From assembly GCF_003334335.1 (NCBI RefSeq), contig NZ_QOWQ01000023.1: a stretch of DNA of 64,000 nt; one strand, given 5' to 3'. This DNA comes from Escherichia coli. Lineage in GTDB: Bacteria > Pseudomonadota > Gammaproteobacteria > Enterobacterales > Enterobacteriaceae. The translations under genes were made by a program, and so were the position numbers. Of the stretch, positions 1 through 61,580 are shown one piece after another (position 1 is the stretch's first letter; each line of letters opens with the position of its first letter). The notes below the pieces were generated by a model that did not search any database, had not been told where the DNA came from, and saw nothing but the letters and a program-made list of their open reading frames with translations.

Positions 1-1383
1 AATCAAATGACTGGTTTTGTGGGTGGTCAGCGTTTCAACAAACGATTTGTCGATTTTCAAAATATCGACATTCAATGATTTAAGGTTATGCAAGTTAGAG
101 TAGCCAATACCAAAATCATCAATTGCCACTTCGTAACCTGCCTGGCGGAAAGCCAGAATAATCGGCGTCATTTTGTCAACATCAAGAAATGCATGCTCAG
201 TCACTTCAAATTTAATTTGCTGCGGACGCACCGCGTATTGCTCTGTTTTCTGATTGATTCGCGCTATCAACCGTGACGTATGAAAATCGGAGGCCGACAG
301 GTTAATAGAAACATAGCGATCTGCATGTGTTGCCAGGTAATCGCCCAGATCGCGGAAGACATTATCAATAACATAATCAGTTATCTGTTCTATCATCCCC
401 TCCTTTTCTGCCAGCGGAATAAACTCTGCCGGATTCATTATTTGCCCCTGCTCACCAGGCCAACGTAACAACGCTTCAGCGCCGATACATTTTTCTGTTT
501 TGATATCGATTATTGGCTGGTAATAAAGACAAAGTTGATGTTTTTCGAGGGCGCGTTGCAATTTACGTTTGGGAGATAAATAGTTTTGTCGAATACGTAG
601 CCAGAGTAATAGCAGAACAAGACTCCCCAAAATACCGGCGGGCAACGCAAAAATAAGATGATTATAAAAATGGGTTATAAGACGTTGATATGAAGTCGCA
701 ACAATGGCTGCAATTGGGCGTTTTGTCGAATAAACTGTCGCATATAAATAGCCATTTCTTTGTACGGTTAAATCCTTCAAATGAATCAGCGGAGAAAACG
801 TTGCTGCCGAGGCCTCTTTGCTTAACGAGAAAAAGGTTTTCGTCACCGTATCATACACACCCCATTGCAATGTCGGGTCATCAGACATCACTTCACTCCA
901 GAAGAGAGGGTTGATAACCGCCACATAATTTCCCCGCTGCATATAGGTCATTTTATAGCCAGAGAAAAAAGGCGTATCGCGGTAATAATAGATAGAAACG
1001 TTAGGTTCACGCTTATAATCGGCCGGTGCAATCGTATAGCCGTTTACAGGCGCTATCAGCGATGAGCATAAAAAATGGTTATCACGGGCATAGATCAATT
1101 CATTAATATAAAGATAGCCACGAATAATATTCAACATTCGCTTTTGATGGGCTGGAGTGCAAACTTGCCCCTGATAGCGTTCAGCTGCATCGCTCACTAA
1201 ATCTGCCTGGCGAATGACCAGCTCGGATTTATCCAGTGCCAGTTGAGCAAAGGTTCGGAGCTGATTATTCACTTCTGATTTTGCCCAAAGGAAGGCAATC
1301 CATAGCGAAAGAATGATGGGAAAGAGAACTAAAAAGATAATGCCCGGCAACGCCAGTAATTGGTGTCGTGCACGATGACTCAT
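1..1383 (-). CDS. pdeC: c-di-GMP phosphodiesterase PdeC (YjcC), CSS-motif sensor plus EAL domain; C-terminus cut by window edge
   Basis: ATG at rc(1381..1383); hand translation [19 protein letters not shown]... runs open to position 1; EAL-type motifs ([14 protein letters not shown]) visible. Confidence 0.85.
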
Positions 1384-1812
1384 TGCTATCAATTTCCTGC
1401 CTGTTTATACCCGGCCATTGCAAGGTGAAAACCCTGGGTACCGACGTCTTTAGATAAATCTTACGGTATAAATAGCACTTTTGCCTGATTTGAAATTGAT
1501 ACCTTTCTAATCGTCACCTGGATGAAAATAATTCATTGATATTCAAAATTAATTTCCTACAGGAATGCAGAGGCGGCGGGAAGATATGCCCTTAATGCCA
1601 CTGAAAAACCACATAATCTGTACAGCAATAAAAGTCACGGCCTAATATGGCTAACAAACAATCAATTGTGATATAGTTCACAAAATTAATGAAACAAACA
1701 GAGTGTTTCATTTTTGTGTTCTGCAAGCCCCGCGATAGCCAGAGTGTACCACGCCTCCCGTGAACAACGCCGCGCTGTCCAGGGCATCGGCTCTTTTCAG
1801 AGGAATTGTTTG

Positions 1813-2094
1813 ATGGCTACCCTCACCACTGGCGTGGTTCTTCTTCGCTGGCAACTTCTTAGTGCCGTAATGATGTTTCTGGCCAGCACACTCAACATCC
1901 GTTTTCGTCGGTCTGATTATGTCGGGCTTGCGGTGATCAGCAGCGGTCTGGGCGTTGTTTCCGCCTGTTGGTTCGCAATGGGGTTGCTTGGCATCACAAT
2001 GGCGGACATCACCGCTATCTGGCACAACATCGAGTCGGTGATGATAGAAGAGATGAATCAGACACCGCCACAATGGCCAATGATTTTGACCTGA
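1813..2094 (+). CDS. yjcB: small inner-membrane protein YjcB (93 aa)
   Basis: Internal ATG of ORF 1714..2094 giving MATLTTGVVLLRWQLL...; hydrophobic. Confidence 0.75.
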   Translation: MATLTTGVVLLRWQLLSAVMMFLASTLNIRFRRSDYVGLAVISSGLGVVSACWFAMGLLGITMADITAIWHNIESVMIEEMNQTPPQWPMILT

Positions 2095-2100
2095 TACGTA

Positions 2101-2129
2101 GAAGCCTCCATAACGGAGGCTTCTTTTTT
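2101..2129 (+). terminator. intrinsic terminator after yjcB
   Basis: GAAGCCTCC-ATAAC-GGAGGCTTC stem-loop followed by TTTTTT. Confidence 0.8.
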
Positions 2130-2192
2130 ATGGCTGGCAGATGCTTTAATCATCCACCTTAAAACAATATAACCTATTGTTTTAATGACAAA

Positions 2193-2729
2193 TCAGAACG
2201 GAATGTCATCATCAAAGTCCATCGGCGGCTCGTTAGACGGCGCTGCCGGAGCGGACTGCTGCGGGCGAGACTGCGCGCCGCCGCTGAACTGATTGCCACC
2301 CTGCGGCTGCTGAGGCTGACCCCAACCGCCCTGCGGCTGACCACCACCGATATTGCCACCTGCCGGAGCGCCACCACCCTGACGACCACCCAGCATCTGC
2401 ATGGTGCCGCCAACGTTCACCACGACTTCTGTGGTGTAGCGATCCTGACCGGATTGATCGGTCCATTTACGGGTACGCAGCTGACCTTCGATATAAACCT
2501 GAGAACCTTTACGCAGATATTCGCTCGCCACTTCTGCCAGTTTGCCGAACAGCACAACGCGGTGCCATTCAGTCTGTTCTTTCATCTCGCCGGTCGCTTT
2601 ATCACGCCAGGATTCGGAAGTAGCCAGCGTAATGTTGGCAACTGCGCCACCATTTGGCATGTAGCGTACTTCCGGGTCCTGACCCAGATTACCAACGAGA
2701 ATAACCTTGTTTACGCCTCTGCTGGCCAT
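2193..2729 (-). CDS. ssb: single-stranded DNA-binding protein SSB (178 aa)
   Basis: [28 protein letters not shown]... with Gly/Gln-rich tail ending DDDIPF; ATG at rc(2727..2729). Confidence 0.95.
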
Positions 2730-2879
2730 GTTCGTGTCTCCTGAAAAAAATCGTTCTGAATAAGTGTAAACGCGCGATTGTACCATTACCAATAGCGCTT
2801 TTACTATGTTGTGACCTCGGTTCCGGGAAACAAACCTGGCCAGACATTGTTACACAACACTCCGGGTAATGCATTCCAA

Positions 2880-2899
2880 TACTGTATATTCATTCAGGT
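2880..2899. promoter_or_regulatory. LexA (SOS) box shared by divergent ssb and uvrA promoters
   Basis: TACTGTATATTCATTCAGGT fits CTGT-N8-ACAG. Confidence 0.85.
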
Positions 2900-2982
2900 C
2901 AATTTGTGTCATAATTAACCGTTTGTGATCGCCGGTAGCACCATGCCACCGGGCAAAAAAGCGTTTAATCCGGGAAAGGTGA

Positions 2983-5805
2983 ATGGATAAGATCGAAGTT
3001 CGGGGCGCCCGCACCCATAATCTCAAAAACATCAACCTCGTTATCCCCCGCGACAAGCTCATTGTCGTGACCGGGCTTTCGGGTTCTGGCAAATCCTCGC
3101 TCGCTTTCGACACCTTATATGCCGAAGGGCAGCGCCGTTACGTTGAATCCCTTTCCGCCTACGCGCGGCAGTTTCTGTCACTGATGGAAAAGCCGGACGT
3201 CGATCATATTGAGGGGCTTTCTCCTGCCATCTCAATTGAGCAGAAATCGACGTCTCATAACCCGCGTTCTACGGTGGGGACAATCACCGAAATCCACGAC
3301 TATTTGCGTTTGTTATTCGCCCGCGTTGGCGAGCCGCGCTGTCCGGACCACGACGTCCCGCTGGCGGCGCAAACCGTCAGCCAGATGGTGGATAACGTGC
3401 TGTCGCAGCCGGAAGGCAAGCGTCTGATGCTACTCGCGCCAATCATTAAAGAGCGCAAAGGCGAACACACCAAAACGCTGGAGAACCTGGCAAGCCAGGG
3501 CTACATCCGTGCTCGTATTGATGGCGAAGTCTGCGATCTTTCCGATCCGCCAAAACTGGAACTGCAAAAGAAACATACCATTGAAGTGGTGGTTGATCGC
3601 TTCAAGGTGCGTGACGATCTTACCCAACGTCTTGCCGAGTCATTTGAAACCGCGCTGGAGCTTTCCGGTGGTACCGCGGTAGTGGCGGATATGGACGACC
3701 CGAAAGCGGAAGAGCTGCTGTTCTCCGCCAACTTCGCCTGCCCAATTTGCGGCTACAGTATGCGTGAACTGGAGCCGCGACTGTTTTCGTTTAACAACCC
3801 GGCGGGGGCCTGCCCGACCTGCGACGGCCTTGGCGTACAGCAATATTTCGATCCTGATCGAGTGATCCAGAATCCGGAACTGTCGCTGGCTGGTGGTGCG
3901 ATCCGTGGCTGGGATCGCCGCAACTTCTATTATTTCCAGATGCTGAAATCGCTGGCAGATCACTATAAGTTCGACGTCGAAGCGCCGTGGGGCAGCCTGA
4001 GCGCGAACGTGCATAAAGTGGTGTTGTACGGTTCTGGCAAAGAAAACATTGAATTCAAATACATGAACGATCGTGGCGATACCTCCATTCGTCGTCATCC
4101 GTTCGAAGGCGTGCTGCATAATATGGAGCGCCGCTATAAAGAGACGGAATCCAGCGCGGTACGCGAAGAATTAGCCAAGTTTATCAGTAATCGTCCGTGC
4201 GCCAGCTGCGAAGGGACGCGTCTGCGTCGGGAAGCGCGCCACGTGTATGTCGAGAATACGCCGCTGCCTGCTATCTCCGACATGAGCATTGGTCATGCGA
4301 TGGAATTCTTCAACAATCTCAAACTCGCAGGTCAGCGGGCGAAGATTGCAGAAAAAATCCTTAAAGAGATCGGCGATCGTCTGAAATTCCTCGTTAACGT
4401 CGGCCTGAATTACCTGACGCTTTCCCGCTCGGCAGAAACGCTTTCTGGCGGTGAAGCACAGCGTATCCGTCTGGCGAGCCAGATTGGTGCGGGCCTGGTT
4501 GGCGTTATGTACGTGCTGGACGAGCCGTCTATCGGCCTGCACCAGCGTGATAACGAGCGCCTGTTGGGTACGCTTATCCATCTGCGCGATCTCGGTAATA
4601 CCGTGATTGTGGTGGAGCACGACGAAGACGCAATTCGCGCCGCTGACCATGTGATCGACATTGGCCCGGGCGCAGGTGTTCACGGCGGTGAAGTGGTCGC
4701 AGAAGGTCCGCTGGAAGCGATTATGGCGGTGCCGGAGTCGTTGACCGGGCAGTACATGAGCGGCAAACGCAAGATTGAAGTGCCGAAGAAACGCGTTCCG
4801 GCGAATCCGGAAAAAGTGCTGAAGCTGACAGGCGCACGCGGCAACAACCTGAAGGACGTGACGCTGACGCTGCCGGTGGGTCTGTTTACCTGCATCACCG
4901 GGGTTTCAGGTTCCGGTAAATCGACGCTGATTAACGACACACTGTTCCCGATTGCCCAACGCCAGTTGAATGGGGCGACCATCGCCGAACCAGCACCGTA
5001 TCGCGATATTCAGGGGCTGGAGCATTTCGATAAAGTGATCGATATCGACCAAAGCCCAATTGGTCGTACTCCACGTTCTAACCCGGCGACCTATACCGGC
5101 GTGTTTACGCCTGTGCGCGAACTGTTTGCGGGCGTACCGGAATCCCGTGCGCGCGGCTATACGCCGGGACGTTTCAGCTTTAACGTTCGTGGCGGACGCT
5201 GCGAGGCCTGTCAGGGCGATGGCGTGATCAAAGTGGAGATGCACTTCCTGCCGGATATCTACGTGCCGTGCGACCAGTGCAAAGGTAAACGCTATAACCG
5301 TGAAACGCTGGAGATTAAGTACAAAGGCAAAACCATCCACGAAGTGCTGGATATGACCATCGAAGAGGCGCGTGAGTTCTTTGATGCCGTACCTGCACTG
5401 GCGCGTAAGCTGCAAACGTTGATGGACGTTGGCCTGACGTACATTCGACTGGGGCAGTCCGCAACCACCCTTTCAGGCGGTGAAGCCCAGCGCGTGAAGC
5501 TGGCGCGTGAACTGTCAAAACGCGGCACCGGGCAGACGCTGTATATTCTCGACGAGCCGACCACCGGTCTGCACTTCGCCGATATTCAGCAACTGCTCGA
5601 CGTACTGCATAAACTGCGCGATCAGGGCAACACCATTGTGGTGATTGAGCACAATCTCGACGTGATCAAAACCGCTGACTGGATTGTCGACCTGGGACCA
5701 GAAGGCGGCAGTGGTGGCGGCGAGATCCTCGTCTCCGGTACGCCAGAAACCGTCGCGGAGTGCGAAGCATCACACACGGCACGCTTCCTTAAGCCGATGC
5801 TGTAA
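2983..5805 (+). CDS. uvrA: excinuclease ABC subunit A UvrA (940 aa)
   Basis: Full-length ORF; two ABC ATPase modules ([18 protein letters not shown]) and zinc-finger cysteines. Confidence 0.97.
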
Positions 5806-40948: not shown

Positions 40949-41255
40949 AACAATTTCCCTTCATTGAATGAATGGAGATTTACCCAAAAACATTTCGGGC
41001 GGGATCGAGTATACACAACTAAAGCATGCGAATTACGGCGCGGGGAATTAGCGATGGCGTTTTAGGATAATTGGAATGAATATCAAATATAAGTTTCAAC
41101 TTATATTTAAATAACAATAAAAATCATAAACTTAAAATAAAAACAAAAGCAATTAATCTGCGTATTTTCCGAAATAAACAACGATTAAAAATCTATTTTA
41201 GGATTAACCTCATGGTATGATTTCCGTTAAATCACAGACAAGGGGATTTATCTGA

Positions 41256-41283
41256 TAAAAAAATGCCGACATAACGTCGGCAT
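41256..41283 (-). terminator. intrinsic terminator distal to pgi (after the 3'-UTR REPs)
   Basis: ATGCCGAC-ATAAC-GTCGGCAT stem followed on minus strand by TTTTTTT. Confidence 0.7.
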
Positions 41284-41356
41284 TGTTATTAAGGTTATTT
41301 AATCAATCGTGCTATGTATTAATTGCCGAATACGATGTACATATCGGCATCGACCT

Positions 41357-41433
41357 GTAGGCCTGATAAGACGCGACCGCGTCGCATCAGGCATCGGTTG
41401 CCGGATGCGGCGTGAACGCCTTATCCGGCCTAC
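41357..41433. repeat. REP pair (BIME) immediately 3' of pgi
   Basis: GTAGGCCTGATAAGACGCGACCGCGTCGCATCAGGC and GCCGGATGCGGCGTGAACGCCTTATCCGGCCTAC. Confidence 0.9.
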
Positions 41434-43314: not shown

Positions 43315-43339
43315 GTACTACCTGCGCTAGCGCAGGCCA

Positions 43340-43620
43340 GAAGAGGCGCGTTGCCCAAGTAACGGTGTTGGAGGAGCCAGTCCTGTGATAACACCTGAGG
43401 GGGTGCATCGCCGAGGTGATTGAACGGCTGGCCACGTTCATCATCGGCTACAGGGGCTGAATCCCCTGGGTTGTCACCAGAAGCGTTCGCAGTCGGGCGT
43501 TTCGCAAGTGGTGGAGCACTTCTGGGTGAAAATAGTAGCGAAGTATCGCTCTGCGCCCACCCGTCTTCCGCTCTTCCCTTGTGCCAAGGCTGAAAATGGA
43601 TCCCCTGACACGAGGTAGTT
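43340..43620 (+). promoter_or_regulatory. lysine riboswitch (L-box) and expression platform in the lysC 5' leader
   Basis: Long structured leader with conserved AGAGGCGC...GGAGGAGCCAG...GAGGGGG...GGTGGAGCAC elements ending at the lysC RBS. Confidence 0.85.
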
Positions 43621-54366: not shown

Positions 54367-58258
<3,892 letters not shown>

Positions 58259-58283
58259 TTAGCGCCCTCATCAGGAGCAGAGA

Positions 58284-58530
58284 ATTGCCGGATGCGGCGT
58301 AAACGCCTTATCCAGCCTACGTTCGGCAACGGTTGTAGGCATGATAAGACGCGCAAGCGTCGCATCAGGCATCGTGCACCGATTGCCGGATGCGGCGTAA
58401 ATGCCTTATCCGGCCTACGTTCGGCAACGGCTGTAGGCATGATAAGACGCGCAAGCGTCGCATCAGGCATCGTGCACCGATTGCCGGATGCGGCGTGAAC
58501 GCCTTATCCGGCCTACAGTCAGCAACGGTT
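58284..58530. repeat. BIME array: about 2.5 tandem copies of a 98-bp unit of two REP palindromes, between aceA and aceK
   Basis: Unit starts at 58284, 58382, 58480 (ATTGCCGGATGCGGCGTAAACGCCTTATCC...GTAGGCATGATAAGACGCGCAAGCGTCGCATCAGGCATCGTGCACCG); copies near-identical. Confidence 0.9.
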
Positions 58531-58538
58531 GTTGTTGC

Positions 58539-59843
58539 TTAGAACTGCGATTCTTCAGTGGAGCCGGTCAGCGCGGTGACTGAAGACGTGCCGCCCTGAA
58601 TAATAGTCGTCACTTTATCGAAGTAACCTGTACCCACTTCCTGCTGGTGAGATACGAAGGTATAGCCATCTTTCGCGGCGGCAAATTCCGGCTGCTGCAC
58701 TTTCTCAACGTAGTGCTTCATACCCTCGCCCTGGGCATAGGCGTTTGCCAGGTCAAACATGTTGAACCACATGCTGTGGATACCTGCCAGGGTGATGAAC
58801 TGGAACTTGTAGCCCATATCCGACAGCTGCTGCTGGAAGCTGGCAATAGTTTTGTCGTCGAGGTTTTTCTGCCAGTTGAACGACGGCGAGCAGTTATAAG
58901 CCAGCAGTTTGCCCGGATATTTCGCGTGGATAGCTTGTGCAAAGCGACGCGCCAGTTCCAGATCCGGCGTGGAGGTTTCACACCAGACCAGGTCAGCATA
59001 TGGCGCATACGCCAGGCCACGGCTGATCGCTTGCTCAATGCCCGCATGAGTACGGAAGAAGCCTTCACTGGTACGCTCGCCGGTAATAAATTCGCTGTCA
59101 TACGGGTCGCAATCGGAGGTGATCAGATCCGCCGCATCAGCATCGGTACGGGCAACCAGCAGGGTTGGAACGCCCGTCACGTCAGCTGCCAGACGCGCCG
59201 CGACCAGTTTCTTAATAGCTTCCTGAGTTGGCACTAAAACTTTGCCGCCCATGTGACCGCATTTCTTCACTGACGCCAGCTGATCTTCGAAGTGAACTGC
59301 CGCTGCACCGGCTTCAATCATCGCTTTCATCAGTTCAAAGGCATTCAGGACACCGCCAAAACCGGCTTCCGCATCGGCAACGATCGGCAGGAAGTAATCG
59401 ACATAGCGCGGATCGCCCGGCTCAATGCCCGCGGACCATTGGATCTGATCGGCACGACGGAAGGTGTTGTTGATCCGCTCCACCACAGCTGGCACCGAGT
59501 TTGCCGGATAGAGCGACTGATCCGGATACATGCTGGCCGCCAGGTTAGCGTCCGCCGCTACCTGCCATCCCGACAGATAGACTGCTTCAATACCCGCTTT
59601 CGCCTGTTGCAGCGCCTGACCGCCAGTCAGTGCGCCGAGGCTGTTGATGTAGCCTTTTTTCGACTCACCGTGCAGCAGACGCCACATTTTCGCTGCGCCC
59701 AGTTGCGCCAGCGTGCATTCAGGATTGACTGAACCGCGTAATTTCACCACATCTTCCGCACTGTATGGGCGAGTAATGCCTTCCCAACGCGGTTGAGTCC
59801 ACTCTTTCTGTAATTCTTCAATTTGTTGTGTACGGGTTTTCAT
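58539..59843 (-). CDS. aceA: isocitrate lyase AceA (434 aa)
   Basis: [38 protein letters not shown]...; catalytic KKCGHMGGK. Confidence 0.97.
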
Positions 59844-59872
59844 GTGCAGATGCTCCATAGTTATGTGGTGGT

Positions 59873-61474
59873 TTACGCTAACAGGCGGTAGCCTGGCAGG
59901 GTCAGGAAATCAATTAACTCATCGGAAGTGGTGATCTGTTCCATCAAGCGTGCGGCATCGTCAAAACGCCCCTGGGAGAAACGTTCTTCGCCCAGTTCGC
60001 TGGCAATGACTTTCATCTCTTCGCCCAGCATCTGGCGGAACAAGGCTTTGGTCACCGGTTTGCCATTGCTCAACGTTTTTTGATGATGGATCCACTGCCA
60101 GATCGAGGTACGGGAAATTTCAGCCGTCGCCGCATCTTCCATCAGGCCATAAATCGGCACACAGCCGTTGCCAGAGATCCACGCTTCGATGTACTGCACA
60201 GCCACGCGAATGTTGGCGCGCATACCTTCTTCGGTGCGTTCACCATCACAAGGTGCCAGCAGCTGATCGGCAGTAATCGGCGCGTCTTGTTCGCGCATCA
60301 CTTCAAGCTGATTTTTACGGGAGCCGAGAATGTCGTTGAATACCGCCATTGCCGTGTCCGCAAGGCCTGGGTGAGCGATCCATGTGCCATCGTGACCGTT
60401 ATTGGCTTCCAGCGATTTATCCGCTTTTACTTTGTTGAGCACCTGGTTATTGTGCTCTTCATCTTTGCTCGGAATAAACGCCGCCATGCCGCCCATCGCA
60501 AAAGCACCGCGTTTATGGCAGGTTTTAATCAACAGGCGTGAGTAAGCATTCAGGAATGGTTTATCCATCGTCACTGCCTGTCTGTCTGGCAGGACGCGAT
60601 CGGGATAGTTTTTCAACGTTTTGATATAGCTGAAGATGTAATCCCAACGACCGCAGTTCAGACCAACAATATGGTCACGCAGCGCGTGAAGGATTTCATC
60701 CATCTGGAACACGGCGGGCAGCGTTTCAATCAGCAACGTCGCCTTGATGGTGCCGCGCGGCAGATTAAAGCGATCTTCTGCATAGCTGAAGACTTCGCTC
60801 CACCAGGCCGCTTCCTGCCAGGACTGGGTTTTCGGCAGATAGAAATAGGGACCACTGCCCTTTGCCAACAGTGCCTGATAGTTGTGGAAGAAATAGAGCG
60901 CAAAATCAAACAGGCTGCCGGGGATTGCCTCACCACGCCAGGTGACATGTTTTTCCGGCAAGTGCAGACCGCGTACCCGACAAATCAAAACCGCTGGATT
61001 GGGCTTGAGCTGGTAAATTTTGCCTGCTTCATTGGTGTAACTGATGGTGCCGTTAACCGCATCACGCAGGTTAATTTGCCCGTCGATCACTTTGTTCCAG
61101 TCTGGTGCCAGTGAATCTTCGAAATCGGCCATAAAGACTTTCACATTGGCGTTGAGCGCGTTGATCACCATCTTGCGCTCTACCGGGCCAGTTATCTCTA
61201 CGCGGCGGTCTTCTAAGTCCGCAGGAATCCCGCGAATTTTCCAATCAGCATCGCGAATGGAAGCTGTTTCCGAAATAAAATCAGGCAACGTTCCGTTATC
61301 AATATCTTGCTGCTGCTGAATGCGCGCTGCCAGAAGTTTATTGCGTTGTGGCGTAAAATGCGTCACCAGCTCAGTCAGAAATTCTACCGCTTCGGCAGTA
61401 AGAATTTGCTTCTCCTGCTCGCCATACGGCCTTGTGAAAGCCAGTTCATCGGTTGTTGTTGCCTGTTCAGTCAT
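59873..61474 (-). CDS. aceB: malate synthase A AceB (533 aa)
   Basis: [40 protein letters not shown]... Confidence 0.97.
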
Positions 61475-61580
61475 CGTGCAGCTCCTCGTCATGGATCCGA
61501 AAACTTCCCCACTGTGAACGAAGGATCGTTGTGCTCTTTTCGTTCAGCACAACTAAGACTACTCATTTAAAATGCAAAAT

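Follow-up and report, generated by a model that had tools for sequence, protein, structure and literature searches.

A BIME-2 array of strain-variable copy number between aceA and aceK in Escherichia coli

Genes, spacer, and repeat array

The window, which is the whole stretch of 64,000 nucleotides of Escherichia coli DNA that we analysed (contig NZ_QOWQ01000023.1), contains aceB, aceA, and aceK, all on the minus strand. Because the open reading frames that flank the spacer studied here lie on this strand, the operon was assigned to the minus strand. Upstream in the transcript is aceA (58539..59858, minus strand), which encodes isocitrate lyase (match of 802 bits to the NCBIfam equivalog NF011645, cut-off 562; also RefSeq annotation of identical DNA), and downstream is aceK (56522..58258, minus strand), which encodes isocitrate dehydrogenase kinase/phosphatase (match of 944 bits to the NCBIfam equivalog NF002804, cut-off 488). 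The two genes are separated by a spacer of 280 nt (58259-58538). A repeat array fills this spacer and is wholly extragenic; the open reading frames that cross it (78, 68, and 50 amino acid residues) are read-throughs of its palindromes.

Tandem Repeats Finder reported one array at 58284-58532, with a period of 98, 2.5 copies, 94% matches, no indels, and a score of 449. The first-pass annotation had described a two-REP BIME unit in tandem at this place, and this description was borne out by Tandem Repeats Finder, by a repeat finder, and by Rfam. Its unit starts (58284, 58382, and 58480) were also recovered, whereas its array end, 58530, fell 2 nt short of 58532. In the repeat-finder comparison, the two full units (58284-58381 and 58382-58479) are 97% identical, linkers included, with mismatches at 3 of 98 positions, and the third copy is partial (53 nt, 58480-58532; identity 91-94%). 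Since the operon is on the minus strand, this partial copy comes first in transcript order and adjoins aceA. The linkers, which are not parts of the REPs, were duplicated together with them; thus, the array reflects local tandem duplication and not a chance neighbourhood of REP-family members.

Each 98-bp unit holds two imperfect palindromes in opposite orientation, namely one Y REP and one inverted Z2 REP, and by dissection of the unit the whole array (58284..58532, no strand assigned) consists of 2.5 copies of Y + S-linker + Z2 + l-linker. The REP order is therefore Y, inverted Z2, Y, inverted Z2, Y, which gives five hairpins. In the transcript (all features minus strand), the aceA stop codon is followed by a segment of 22 nt with a small 5-bp hairpin, GCAAC...GUUGC (58517..58538; predicted fold -5.3 kcal/mol). 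The first Y REP, within the partial copy and with GTAG first in the mRNA, is at 58482..58516 (hairpin -20.9 kcal/mol), covered by an Rfam naRNA4 match at 58436-58513. It is followed by one inverted Z2 REP (58433..58469; -14.8 kcal/mol; naRNA4 match of 85.6 bits), the second Y REP (58384..58418; -19.1 kcal/mol; naRNA4 match at 58338-58415, 81.8 bits), the other inverted Z2 REP (58335..58371; -14.8 kcal/mol), and the third Y REP, which is the final hairpin ahead of aceK (58286..58320; -18.7 kcal/mol; partial Rfam match at 58280-58317). The hairpins thus range from -15 to -21 kcal/mol in prediction, pairing is retained in all five despite point differences, and the transcript strand of the array as a whole has a predicted fold of -152.8 kcal/mol (z = -6.0). 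The remaining tail of the spacer (58259..58285, minus strand) contains GAGGG, the Shine-Dalgarno sequence of aceK, at a distance of 6-7 nt from the AUG and with a predicted SD/anti-SD duplex of -6.1 kcal/mol.

The sequence after the REPs is AAUCGG or AAUUCU, and the terminator scan for a GC-rich hairpin followed by a U tract found no intrinsic terminator site in 58259-58538; its only minus-strand sites were inside aceK, at 57920-57899 and 57974-57959. A search of the array for an internal aceK promoter was also negative: all promoter-like hexamer pairs of the region belong to the plus strand and are thus antisense to the operon.

We identify the array as a BIME-2 element that sits between two cistrons of the minus-strand aceBAK operon. 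In the Gilson/Bachellier scheme, which we follow as summarised by Ton-Hoang et al. (2012, PMC3333891), BIME-2 elements combine y and z2 in tandem copies that are conserved within a locus and whose number varies among strains. The ace array shows alternating Y and Z2 REPs, near-identical tandem units with short linkers, an extragenic position, and a copy number that differs among strains (see below), and its unit of one Y and one inverted Z2 REP makes it a textbook BIME-2 (Y-Z2-Y-Z2-Y). The Rfam family RF02564 (naRNA4), which models the Y-l-Z2 unit, matched with 85.6 and 81.8 bits on the minus, that is, the transcribed strand (gathering score 59.5). It also matched three other BIME-2s in the window; thus, the model detects any Y-Z2 pair, not a specific gene, and since it matches every such pair in the window we rejected naRNA4 as a specific identity.

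Alleles among strains and species, and origin of the array

To describe the variation at this site, we used allele counts from 5,426 complete E. coli genomes. The 2.5-unit allele of the window was present in about 2,617 of them (~48%), among them the BL21 lineage. An allele of 1.5 units was found in 1,016 genomes; this is the K-12 and O157:H7 type, and all sampled K-12 and O157:H7 genomes had it. A REP-free spacer of 48 nt was carried by 718 genomes (13%), including several strains named as ExPEC or UPEC, and 3.5 units were seen in only 11. The other 1,064 genomes had remaining alleles. Spacer lengths in E. coli were 48, 85, 124, 182, 215, 280, and 378 nt, and truncated or hybrid alleles, with the 85-, 124-, and 215-nt spacers among them, were many. 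An odd match with a 215-nt spacer, considered as an IS insertion into the BIME, proved to be the 215-nt allele in a strain that has iclR directly beside aceK. Repeat counting across these genomes, with 0 to 3.5 units, agrees with the strain-variable copy number that had been proposed from the sequence of the window.

In an even sample of 2.5-unit carriers, about 22 of 30 were 100% identical over 329 nt, and a single 2.5-unit sequence was identical in roughly 1,900 genomes. About 2,600 complete genomes have the allele, most of them without a difference over these 329 nt, so that an assembly artefact is excluded.

Outside E. coli, Y/Z2 arrays occupied the site in all four of the other Escherichia genomes recovered (E. 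albertii, E. whittamii, and two Escherichia sp.), that of E. albertii having 5.5 units. Salmonella, Citrobacter, and Kluyvera have unrelated REP types there, and among the other enterobacterial species sampled, those without a REP at the site form the largest group. The REP-free spacer of E. coli is of the ancestral type and resembles the spacer of Phytobacter.

The units themselves bear on the origin of the array. All 98-nt units of E. coli share the linker ATCGGTGCACGAT. In E. albertii, E. whittamii, and one E. coli allele, the units are 91-92 nt long, with an S linker 7 nt shorter than that of the 98-nt unit. The 3.5-unit alleles of the 11 genomes have at least three different unit compositions; for example, the allele of Rosetta2(DE3) is that of C43(DE3) plus one extra copy of unit 1. 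Judged from these compositions, the 3.5-unit alleles appear to have at least three separate origins, and expansion appears to be continuing. The 2.5-unit allele, to judge from its frequency and from its identity among carriers, is an old one that has been stable in most lineages. We regard as established an origin in which a 98-nt variant of the unit, seen in the E. coli alleles examined, was amplified in place, through unequal recombination or replication slippage between units. The REP-associated transposase TnpA-REP may have been involved. Its binding in vitro needs a 5' GTAG and an internal stem mismatch in the REP hairpin, and it cleaves and recombines BIMEs in vitro (PMC3333891); all three Y REPs of the array start with GTAG and have an AA/GC internal stem mismatch, as expected of a TnpA-REP (RAYT) substrate. 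The near-identity of the units had been taken in the first-pass annotation as a sign of recent duplication or gene conversion. Local amplification agrees with the shared 98-nt form and with the several origins of 3.5 units, but the proposed recency does not hold for the allele of the window; an allele that about 48% of E. coli genomes share, for the most part without any difference, is not a recent duplication.

The same data raise the question of whether the array has any function. It could be a neutral, selfish repeat: a REP/BIME inserted into the ancestral 48-nt spacer, its copy number drifting and no function maintained by the host. We hold this to be possible though rather unlikely. The ancestral-type, Phytobacter-like spacer that persists in E. 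coli, the unrelated REP types of the three other genera, the many truncated and hybrid alleles, and the action of TnpA-REP on BIMEs in vitro would all fit it. However, the Y/Z2 arrays of the four non-coli Escherichia genomes, the pairing kept by the five hairpins, and the two molecular activities measurable in K-12 (gyrase cleavage and a 3' end of the transcript) speak against it.

Activities at the array and the low output of aceK

At the DNA level, published Topo-seq data from a K-12 derivative with the 1.5-unit allele place 8 of the 104 ciprofloxacin-trapped gyrase cleavage sites found across 263 BIME-2 intervals in the aceA-aceK element, and most of these intervals have none. The counts for the element were 8 (Cfx), 2 (rifampicin plus ciprofloxacin, RifCfx), 0 (Micro), and 2 (oxolinic acid, Oxo). 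In its K-12 allele, the element ranks among the stronger BIME-2 gyrase cleavage sites of the chromosome. Gyrase prefers Y REPs, also where it cleaves this element in K-12, and BIME-2 signals go up when transcription is blocked. These observations would suit a selected function in DNA, in which a strong, transcription-independent gyrase site relieves or insulates supercoiling near the heavily transcribed aceBA genes and the effects on RNA are by-products. We give this proposal about the same limited credence as the neutral repeat, since 718 E. coli genomes, like the largest group among the other enterobacterial species sampled, do without a REP here. Furthermore, not one ciprofloxacin-trapped site lies in REP325, a BIME-2 of far greater size, and the use of BIME-2 elements by gyrase is therefore idiosyncratic.

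At the RNA level, a transcript 3' terminus of K-12 at 4218573, annotated to aceA, lies 5-6 nt past the last REP and was significant in two of three libraries (TRS Supplementary Data 2, PMC10687069). By sequence identity of the segment, its equivalent in the window would be 58281 (minus strand), 23 nt upstream of the aceK AUG. This end could be a processing product instead of a site of termination. A complete lack of transcript 3' ends at the array, together with a uniform copy number, would have counted against the reading of the first-pass annotation; one such end maps there in K-12, and the reading is not refuted in this way.

The setting is that of an intercistronic REP stabiliser or attenuator: the two genes are co-transcribed on the same strand, and the upstream gene is expressed far above the downstream gene. 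From REP325, whose Y-Z2 array has 6 units, truncated transcripts appear as a ladder; in one construct the mRNA upstream of it was stabilised more than 160-fold, and its attenuation depends partly on Rho. Tandem gene pairs split by a REP have a raised ratio of upstream to downstream expression (Harris 2026 preprint, 10.64898/2026.03.23.713779). These REP325 data are from a preprint and largely from plasmid constructs, and its authors stress that the effects of REPs depend on context (Harris 2026). On the basis of the K-12 terminus and REP325, we infer that the co-transcribed ace hairpins may form a barrier to 3'-to-5' exonucleases and may also act as a leaky, possibly partly Rho-dependent attenuator. 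The outcome would be stable aceBA transcripts that end just past the last REP, with fewer transcripts entering aceK. Our literature search found no direct REP-deletion experiment at aceA-aceK; Chung et al. 1993 was outside its scope.

Whether such an effect explains the low output of aceK, as had been suggested from the sequence, is a separate matter. Chung 1993 reportedly ascribed the downshift from aceA to aceK to poor translation and premature termination. The product ratio of aceB, aceA, and aceK is about 0.3:1:0.003, and the aceK transcript is far below that of aceA (BL21 transcriptome paper, citing Chung 1993). The BL21 transcriptome paper itself also describes premature termination in aceK. 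In our scan, a terminator-like hairpin with a U tract lies inside aceK at +338 to +369 (57889..57920, minus strand), just where the AceK-int sRNA has its 3' end. In K-12, AceK-int spans 4218879-4218963, and a transcript 3' terminus at 4218963 is its end (PMC10687069), which other species have conserved. Of 79 enterobacterial loci, 59 had a stable hairpin and a T run at the position of the aceK hairpin, with REP-free species among those inspected. The hairpin at +338 to +369 is likely the site of the reported premature termination in aceK.

The main causes of the downshift would thus be weak translation of aceK and termination at the conserved hairpin and U tract about 340-370 nt inside the gene, both of which would act also in species and strains without a REP at the site, and the array would be a secondary contributor. 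The functional reading of the REPs is therefore upheld in part, by the K-12 3' end and by REP325, and it is unlikely that the array accounts for most of the shortfall in aceK output. Taken together, we consider it fairly likely that the locus holds a BIME-2 amplified in place that acts in RNA as a barrier and attenuator of secondary weight in the downshift, and in K-12 also as a gyrase site.

A stronger claim, which takes up the tuning knob of the first-pass annotation, is that unit number works as an adaptive dial that varies among strains: with every further Y-Z2 pair, attenuation or the decay barrier would grow, and the AceA:AceK ratio would be set in this way. The spread of unit numbers (0 to 3.5 in E. 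coli, 5.5 in E. albertii) invites this idea, and in the ladder of REP325 the main species has about four hairpins, which suggests cumulative leaky stops; the authors of that study propose REPs as tunable dials (Harris 2026 preprint). We nevertheless find the dial unlikely. The alleles mostly track lineages (K-12 and O157:H7 at 1.5 units, one 2.5-unit sequence in roughly 1,900 genomes), a pattern that looks like inheritance and not like frequent retuning, and changes are rare, as the 11 genomes with 3.5 units indicate. In addition, the predicted accessibility of the aceK ribosome-binding site showed no trend with unit number (mean unpaired probability 0.30-0.50 across alleles), and the downshift of aceK is present in REP-free species too. 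Two further proposals fare worse. The units could give rise, by processing, to small RNAs of the naRNA4 kind, with HU binding and a part in nucleoid condensation, as two units score above the RF02564 gathering score on the transcribed strand, and HU binding and nucleoid effects were reported for REP325 RNAs (Qian et al. 2015, PMC4550694). However, RF02564 matches the three other BIME-2s of the window as well, and deletion or overexpression of REP325 had no effect on nucleoid volume, with no HU-dependent REP-REP contacts, in a study whose authors include the senior author of the 2015 work (Harris et al. 2026). This reading is already largely refuted at its type locus, REP325, and we judge it very improbable here. 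A REP does follow the aceA stop codon, but stalling of ribosomes there, with tmRNA tagging and less AceA, is the least credible proposal of all, for the first REP begins 22 nt past the UAA and its stem about 26 nt past it, such stalling reportedly needs a REP within about 15 nt of the stop codon (Liang, Rudd and Deutscher 2015), and AceA is the most abundant product of the operon.

Significance and comparison with known systems

The array matters little as a discovery, as it is an ordinary repeat of an already-described kind: BIME-2 arrays, their homogeneity within a locus, variation in copy number, affinity for gyrase, and stabilising or attenuating effects are all already published. Even the REPs between aceA and aceK were reportedly noted in the aceK sequence paper of 1988. 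What our counts usefully provide is a clean set of naturally occurring alleles, with numbers of genomes attached, at a single operon that is well understood: E. coli spans 0 to 3.5 units, and E. albertii reaches 5.5. This set makes a good test bed for the proposal of the 2026 preprint that REP copy number quantitatively tunes the downstream gene. That the natural series (REP-free with a strong SD, 0.5, 1.5, 2.5, and 3.5 units) sets lineage-specific levels of AceK is, in our estimate, quite doubtful. If it were true, lineages would have their own set points for the phosphorylation of isocitrate dehydrogenase and for glyoxylate-shunt flux, the source of variation, heritable as well as reversible, would be unequal crossing-over between units, and the array would be a contingency-like expression dial inside an operon of central metabolism.

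Compared with other BIME-2 elements, the ace array has no essential difference. It is peculiar only in its locus- and lineage-specific 98-nt unit, with the longer S linker ATCGGTGCACGAT and a Z2 variant with the end TCATGCCTAC.

In other Enterobacteriaceae, the ancestral aceA-aceK spacer is about 48-55 nt long and has a GC-rich hairpin beside the Shine-Dalgarno sequence. Like the ace array, it places a stable stem-loop (-19 to -32 kcal/mol) directly after aceA; unlike the array, it has a single non-REP hairpin in a short spacer. The 48-nt allele of E. coli also has a stronger SD, AAGGAG, with a predicted SD/anti-SD duplex of -9.2 kcal/mol, compared with -6.1 kcal/mol in the array-bearing window.

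The classical intercistronic REPs of malE-malF and hisJ-hisQ are said to have been proposed by Newbury, Stern, and Higgins in 1987-88 as a block to 3'-to-5' decay. As at ace, their hairpins lie between a strong upstream gene and a weak downstream gene; unlike there, most of the downshift at ace is attributed in published work to other causes, namely poor translation and termination inside aceK. REP325 (yjdM-yjdN; Rfam RF02564; naRNA1-6; Qian 2015, PMC4550694) shares with the ace array the Y-l-Z2 unit and a co-transcribed position between two co-oriented genes of one operon, and its reported dual role, as a leaky, partly Rho-dependent terminator and as a stabiliser of the upstream mRNA, is the one we propose for ace. 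The two arrays differ in size, with 6 units and 12 hairpins in REP325 and 2.5 units at ace, and in their behaviour toward gyrase, with 0 ciprofloxacin-trapped sites in REP325 against the 8 of the aceA-aceK element.

Structure and class of the aceA-aceK array

Most of the 280-nt spacer between aceA and aceK (58259-58538) is taken up by a single tandem array. Tandem Repeats Finder placed it at 58284-58532 (period 98, 2.5 copies, 94% matches, no indels, score 449). A gap-free repeat finder gave two full units at 58284-58381 and 58382-58479, which are 97% identical with 3 mismatches, and a third, partial copy of 53 nt at 58480-58532, which is the first in transcript order. The coordinates and description of the repeat in the first-pass annotation agree with both programs; only the end coordinate was 2 nt short. 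The genes for isocitrate dehydrogenase kinase/phosphatase (aceK, 56522-58258), isocitrate lyase (aceA, 58539-59858), and malate synthase A (59873-61492), all on the minus strand, scored far above the NCBIfam equivalog cut-offs. A 728-aa ORF (54367-56553, plus strand) is convergent with aceK, shares 32 nt with the 3' end of that gene, and had no NCBIfam match; it is probably arpA, judging from position and length. In strain FDAARGOS_1260, iclR adjoins aceK, so the gene of this ORF is absent there.

In the mRNA sense, the spacer consists of a 22-nt segment (with a weak hairpin of 5 bp) 3' of the aceA stop codon, then a Y REP (GTAGGCCGGATAAGGCG...CGCCGCATCCGGCA), the linker ATCGGTGCACGA, an inverted Z2 REP (TGCCTGATGCGACGC...GCGTCTTATCATGCCTAC), and the linker AGCCGTTGCCGAAC; this Y-linker-Z2-linker series is repeated and followed by a third Y REP and a 27-nt tail with the aceK Shine-Dalgarno sequence. 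As RNA, the Y hairpins have predicted energies of -19 to -21 kcal/mol and the Z2 hairpins of -14.8 kcal/mol, and the predicted fold of the whole transcribed spacer is -152.8 kcal/mol (z = -6.0 versus shuffles). ORFs across the array (58234-58470, minus; 58292-58498 and 58390-58542, plus) were rejected as genes, as they are read-throughs of the palindromes.

BIME-2 elements are defined by y and z2 REPs in multiple tandem copies with short linkers, good conservation of the units at any one locus, and a copy number that differs among strains (PMC3333891), and the aceA-aceK array fits this definition. On the transcribed strand, the Rfam covariance model RF02564 (naRNA4), which was built on Y-l-Z2 units of the REP325 array, scored 85.6 and 81.8 bits (gathering score, 59.5). 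Three more Y-Z2 BIME-2 pairs in the window, all on the minus strand, also exceeded the threshold (27460-27530, 31689-31759, and 41360-41430); thus, the model detects Y-Z2 pairs generically and identifies no specific gene. The family name implies an HU-binding nucleoid RNA, a reading that we rejected for the array and that is contradicted for the type locus REP325 by Harris et al. 2026. Other gathering-level Rfam matches in the window were a lysine riboswitch (43333-43529, plus), the sRNA STnc430 (41145-41294, plus), and a 5S rRNA gene (63795-63910, minus).

Allele distribution and history of the array

We surveyed the locus with a flank-anchored 582-nt query, taking targets at even intervals from the full ranking of the 5,426 complete E. 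coli genomes. Target spans in the even sample were 582, 517, 484/485, 426, 387, and 350 nt, and the spacers of representative loci were 280, 215, 182, 124, 85, and 48 nt. Alleles were then counted with queries and E-value limits under which nothing but an uninterrupted match to the allele in question passed. In this collection, which is skewed to clinical and laboratory strains so that frequencies describe the database and not nature, at least 3.5 units were found in 11 genomes, at least 2.5 units in 2,628 (about 2,617 with exactly 2.5), 1.5 units in 1,016 (including every sampled K-12 derivative and O157:H7), and a REP-free 48-nt spacer in 718, several with ExPEC or UPEC strain names. The other 1,064 genomes, obtained by subtraction, mostly carry the 124-nt allele (about 10% of the even sample); the 85-nt and 215-nt alleles each account for about 3%. 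All four fetched 3.5-unit loci had a 378-nt spacer. Copy number therefore varies among strains, as the first-pass annotation had supposed, and ranges from 0 to 3.5 units.

The 98-nt units of E. coli all have an S linker longer by 7 nt and a Z2 variant ending TCATGCCTAC. E. albertii, E. whittamii, and the 215-nt E. coli allele have units of 91-92 nt, in which the linker reads ATCAAC or ATCAGC. The sharing of one linker/Z2 variant by all 98-nt units indicates in-situ amplification of a single variant unit. Removing one unit from the window allele gives the K-12 allele, and the junction falls in an 18-nt stretch common to both units; judged from the sequences, this is the outcome that would be expected of unequal crossing-over or slippage. 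At least three distinct unit compositions occur among the 3.5-unit alleles (strains 3359 and 90-3040; strain SBF45; BL21 derivatives), which arose as separate events. The allele of Rosetta2(DE3) is the 2.5-unit allele of C43(DE3) plus one more exact copy of its unit 1. BL21-RIPL also has 3.5 units and was deposited under an accession number consecutive with that of Rosetta2(DE3); C43(DE3) and B-ZidR have 2.5. The extra unit in these BL21-derived strains is either a laboratory-lineage expansion or an assembly error.

In an even sample of the 2,628 genomes with at least 2.5 units, about 22 of 30 carriers were 100% identical over 329 nt. The 2.5-unit allele is thus old, and the near-identity of its units had been wrongly read as a sign of recent duplication. 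The array is better described as locally amplified and then inherited over the long term, with units gained or lost now and then.

We also compared one genome per species; 80 loci were returned, and 79 had both aceA and aceK. The largest group (about 37 of the 79) has a REP-free spacer of 47-55 nt, in genera including Enterobacter, Raoultella, Klebsiella (K. oxytoca), Lelliottia, Yokenella, Trabulsiella, Kosakonia, Atlantibacter, and Phytobacter; at some other loci, the spacer is longer but also devoid of REP motifs. Two REPs of different type in a spacer of about 93-105 nt occur in Salmonella, Citrobacter, and Kluyvera, and Y/Z2 arrays were found only in Escherichia among the 79 loci. E. albertii NBRC 107761 has the largest array found at this site (542-nt spacer, 5.5 Y-Z2 units of 91-92 nt, more diverged from one another than E. 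coli units). The spacer is 308 nt in E. whittamii and 198 and 116 nt in two other Escherichia species. Two records have an aceK product 85-88% identical to E. coli AceK: one titled Chryseobacterium sp. 18061, which also has a typical enterobacterial 50-nt spacer, suggesting a contaminated or mislabelled assembly, and Edwardsiella ictaluri ATCC 33202, with a putative 0-nt spacer as automatically parsed.

In the REP-free short-spacer loci inspected, a GC-rich hairpin of the CCCCTCTCC...GGAGAGGGG type lies directly 3' of aceA, adjoining the Shine-Dalgarno sequence, and could be a conserved translation-occluding or mRNA-stabilising element. It has energies of up to -32 kcal/mol and falls within the roughly 50 nt preceding the aceK start (position 1201 in L025, L030, L033, L035, L048, L072, L082, and similar loci), and its 3' side borders on or runs into the purine-rich ribosome-binding site of aceK. 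What is conserved is thus a stem-loop after aceA, which in Escherichia specifically takes the form of BIME-2. The E. coli 48-nt allele (strain MLI121, L005:451-498) closely resembles the spacer of Phytobacter massiliensis, both ending GTAAGGAGAGGCGATG; it forms a hairpin of its own and carries a stronger Shine-Dalgarno sequence (AAGGAG). This allele looks like an ancestral type kept in part of E. coli, though it may instead have been gained by recombination.

Probable contribution of the array to low aceK output

Chung 1993 reportedly ascribed the downshift to inefficient translation and premature transcription termination. In the BL21 transcriptome paper, there was far less aceK transcript than aceA transcript, premature termination was seen in aceK, and the product ratio is given as about 0.3:1:0.003 (citing Chung et al. 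1993). A consensus scan found a hairpin resembling a terminator, with a U tract (CCGCTCGCTTACTCCCGAGCGG CTTTTTAT), at 57889-57920 on the minus strand (aceK +338 to +369), at the same place as the 3' end published for the Hfq-dependent sRNA AceK-int (K-12 4218879-4218963). A stable hairpin and T run occupy this position in 59 of 79 enterobacterial loci, with REP-free species among those inspected. This hairpin is likely the site of the reported premature termination. The aceK Shine-Dalgarno sequence does not differ among the 85-, 124-, 182-, 280-, and 378-nt alleles, where it is weak (-6.1 kcal/mol); the value is similar (-6.4) in the 215-nt allele, and the REP-free allele has a stronger sequence (-9.2 kcal/mol). 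Across the alleles, the aceK initiation region showed no trend in predicted accessibility with unit number.

For the array itself, a re-analysis of K-12 RNA 3' termini (TRS) has a terminus at dominant position 4218573 (window equivalent, 58281), annotated 'Alternative primary in TU, aceA', which lies 5-6 nt beyond the last Y REP and 23 nt upstream of the aceK AUG and was significant in two of three libraries. Among studied relatives, the closest is REP325, which is reportedly a partly Rho-dependent terminator and a stabiliser of upstream mRNA and gives a ladder of truncated transcripts. REPs also define stable 3' ends of Rho-terminated transcripts, and genome-wide the upstream/downstream expression ratio is raised for tandem gene pairs separated by REPs. 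An intrinsic-terminator reading of the REPs was rejected because the terminator scan found no U tract 3' of them. The REP/stop-codon stalling mechanism, for which the criterion is said to be 15 nt, should not apply, as the first REP begins 22 nt past the aceA stop codon.

The first-pass annotation had proposed that the array could lower aceK expression. The 3' end past the last REP and the REP325-type effects favour this, and the array probably adds a decay barrier and some attenuation. However, given the termination inside aceK, the weak Shine-Dalgarno sequence, and the presence of the aceK-internal hairpin in REP-free species, low AceK output probably does not require the array and has its main cause elsewhere.

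Gyrase activity and comparison with studied BIME-2 elements

In Topo-seq of a K-12 derivative, the aceA-aceK BIME-2 (131 bp, 1.5-unit allele) had 8 ciprofloxacin, 2 rifampicin+ciprofloxacin, 0 microcin B17, and 2 oxolinic acid cleavage sites. All 263 BIME-2 intervals together had 104 ciprofloxacin sites, most having none; in the parts of the table covered, only tldD-yhdP, with 35, had a higher count. Gyrase has a preference for Y REPs, and a block of transcription increases the BIME-2 signals. Gyrase activity at the K-12 allele is genuine and can coexist with an RNA-level role.

The observation of the repeat is confirmed and its first interpretation partly supported. Every general property inferred there was already in the literature for BIME-2, a well-described family; what is new is the locus-specific census and comparative picture, and the allelic series would be a convenient natural resource for a quantitative test of whether REP copy number tunes downstream expression. 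In contrast to the 8 ciprofloxacin sites of the aceA-aceK element, the far larger REP325 has none, which indicates that array size does not predict gyrase use.
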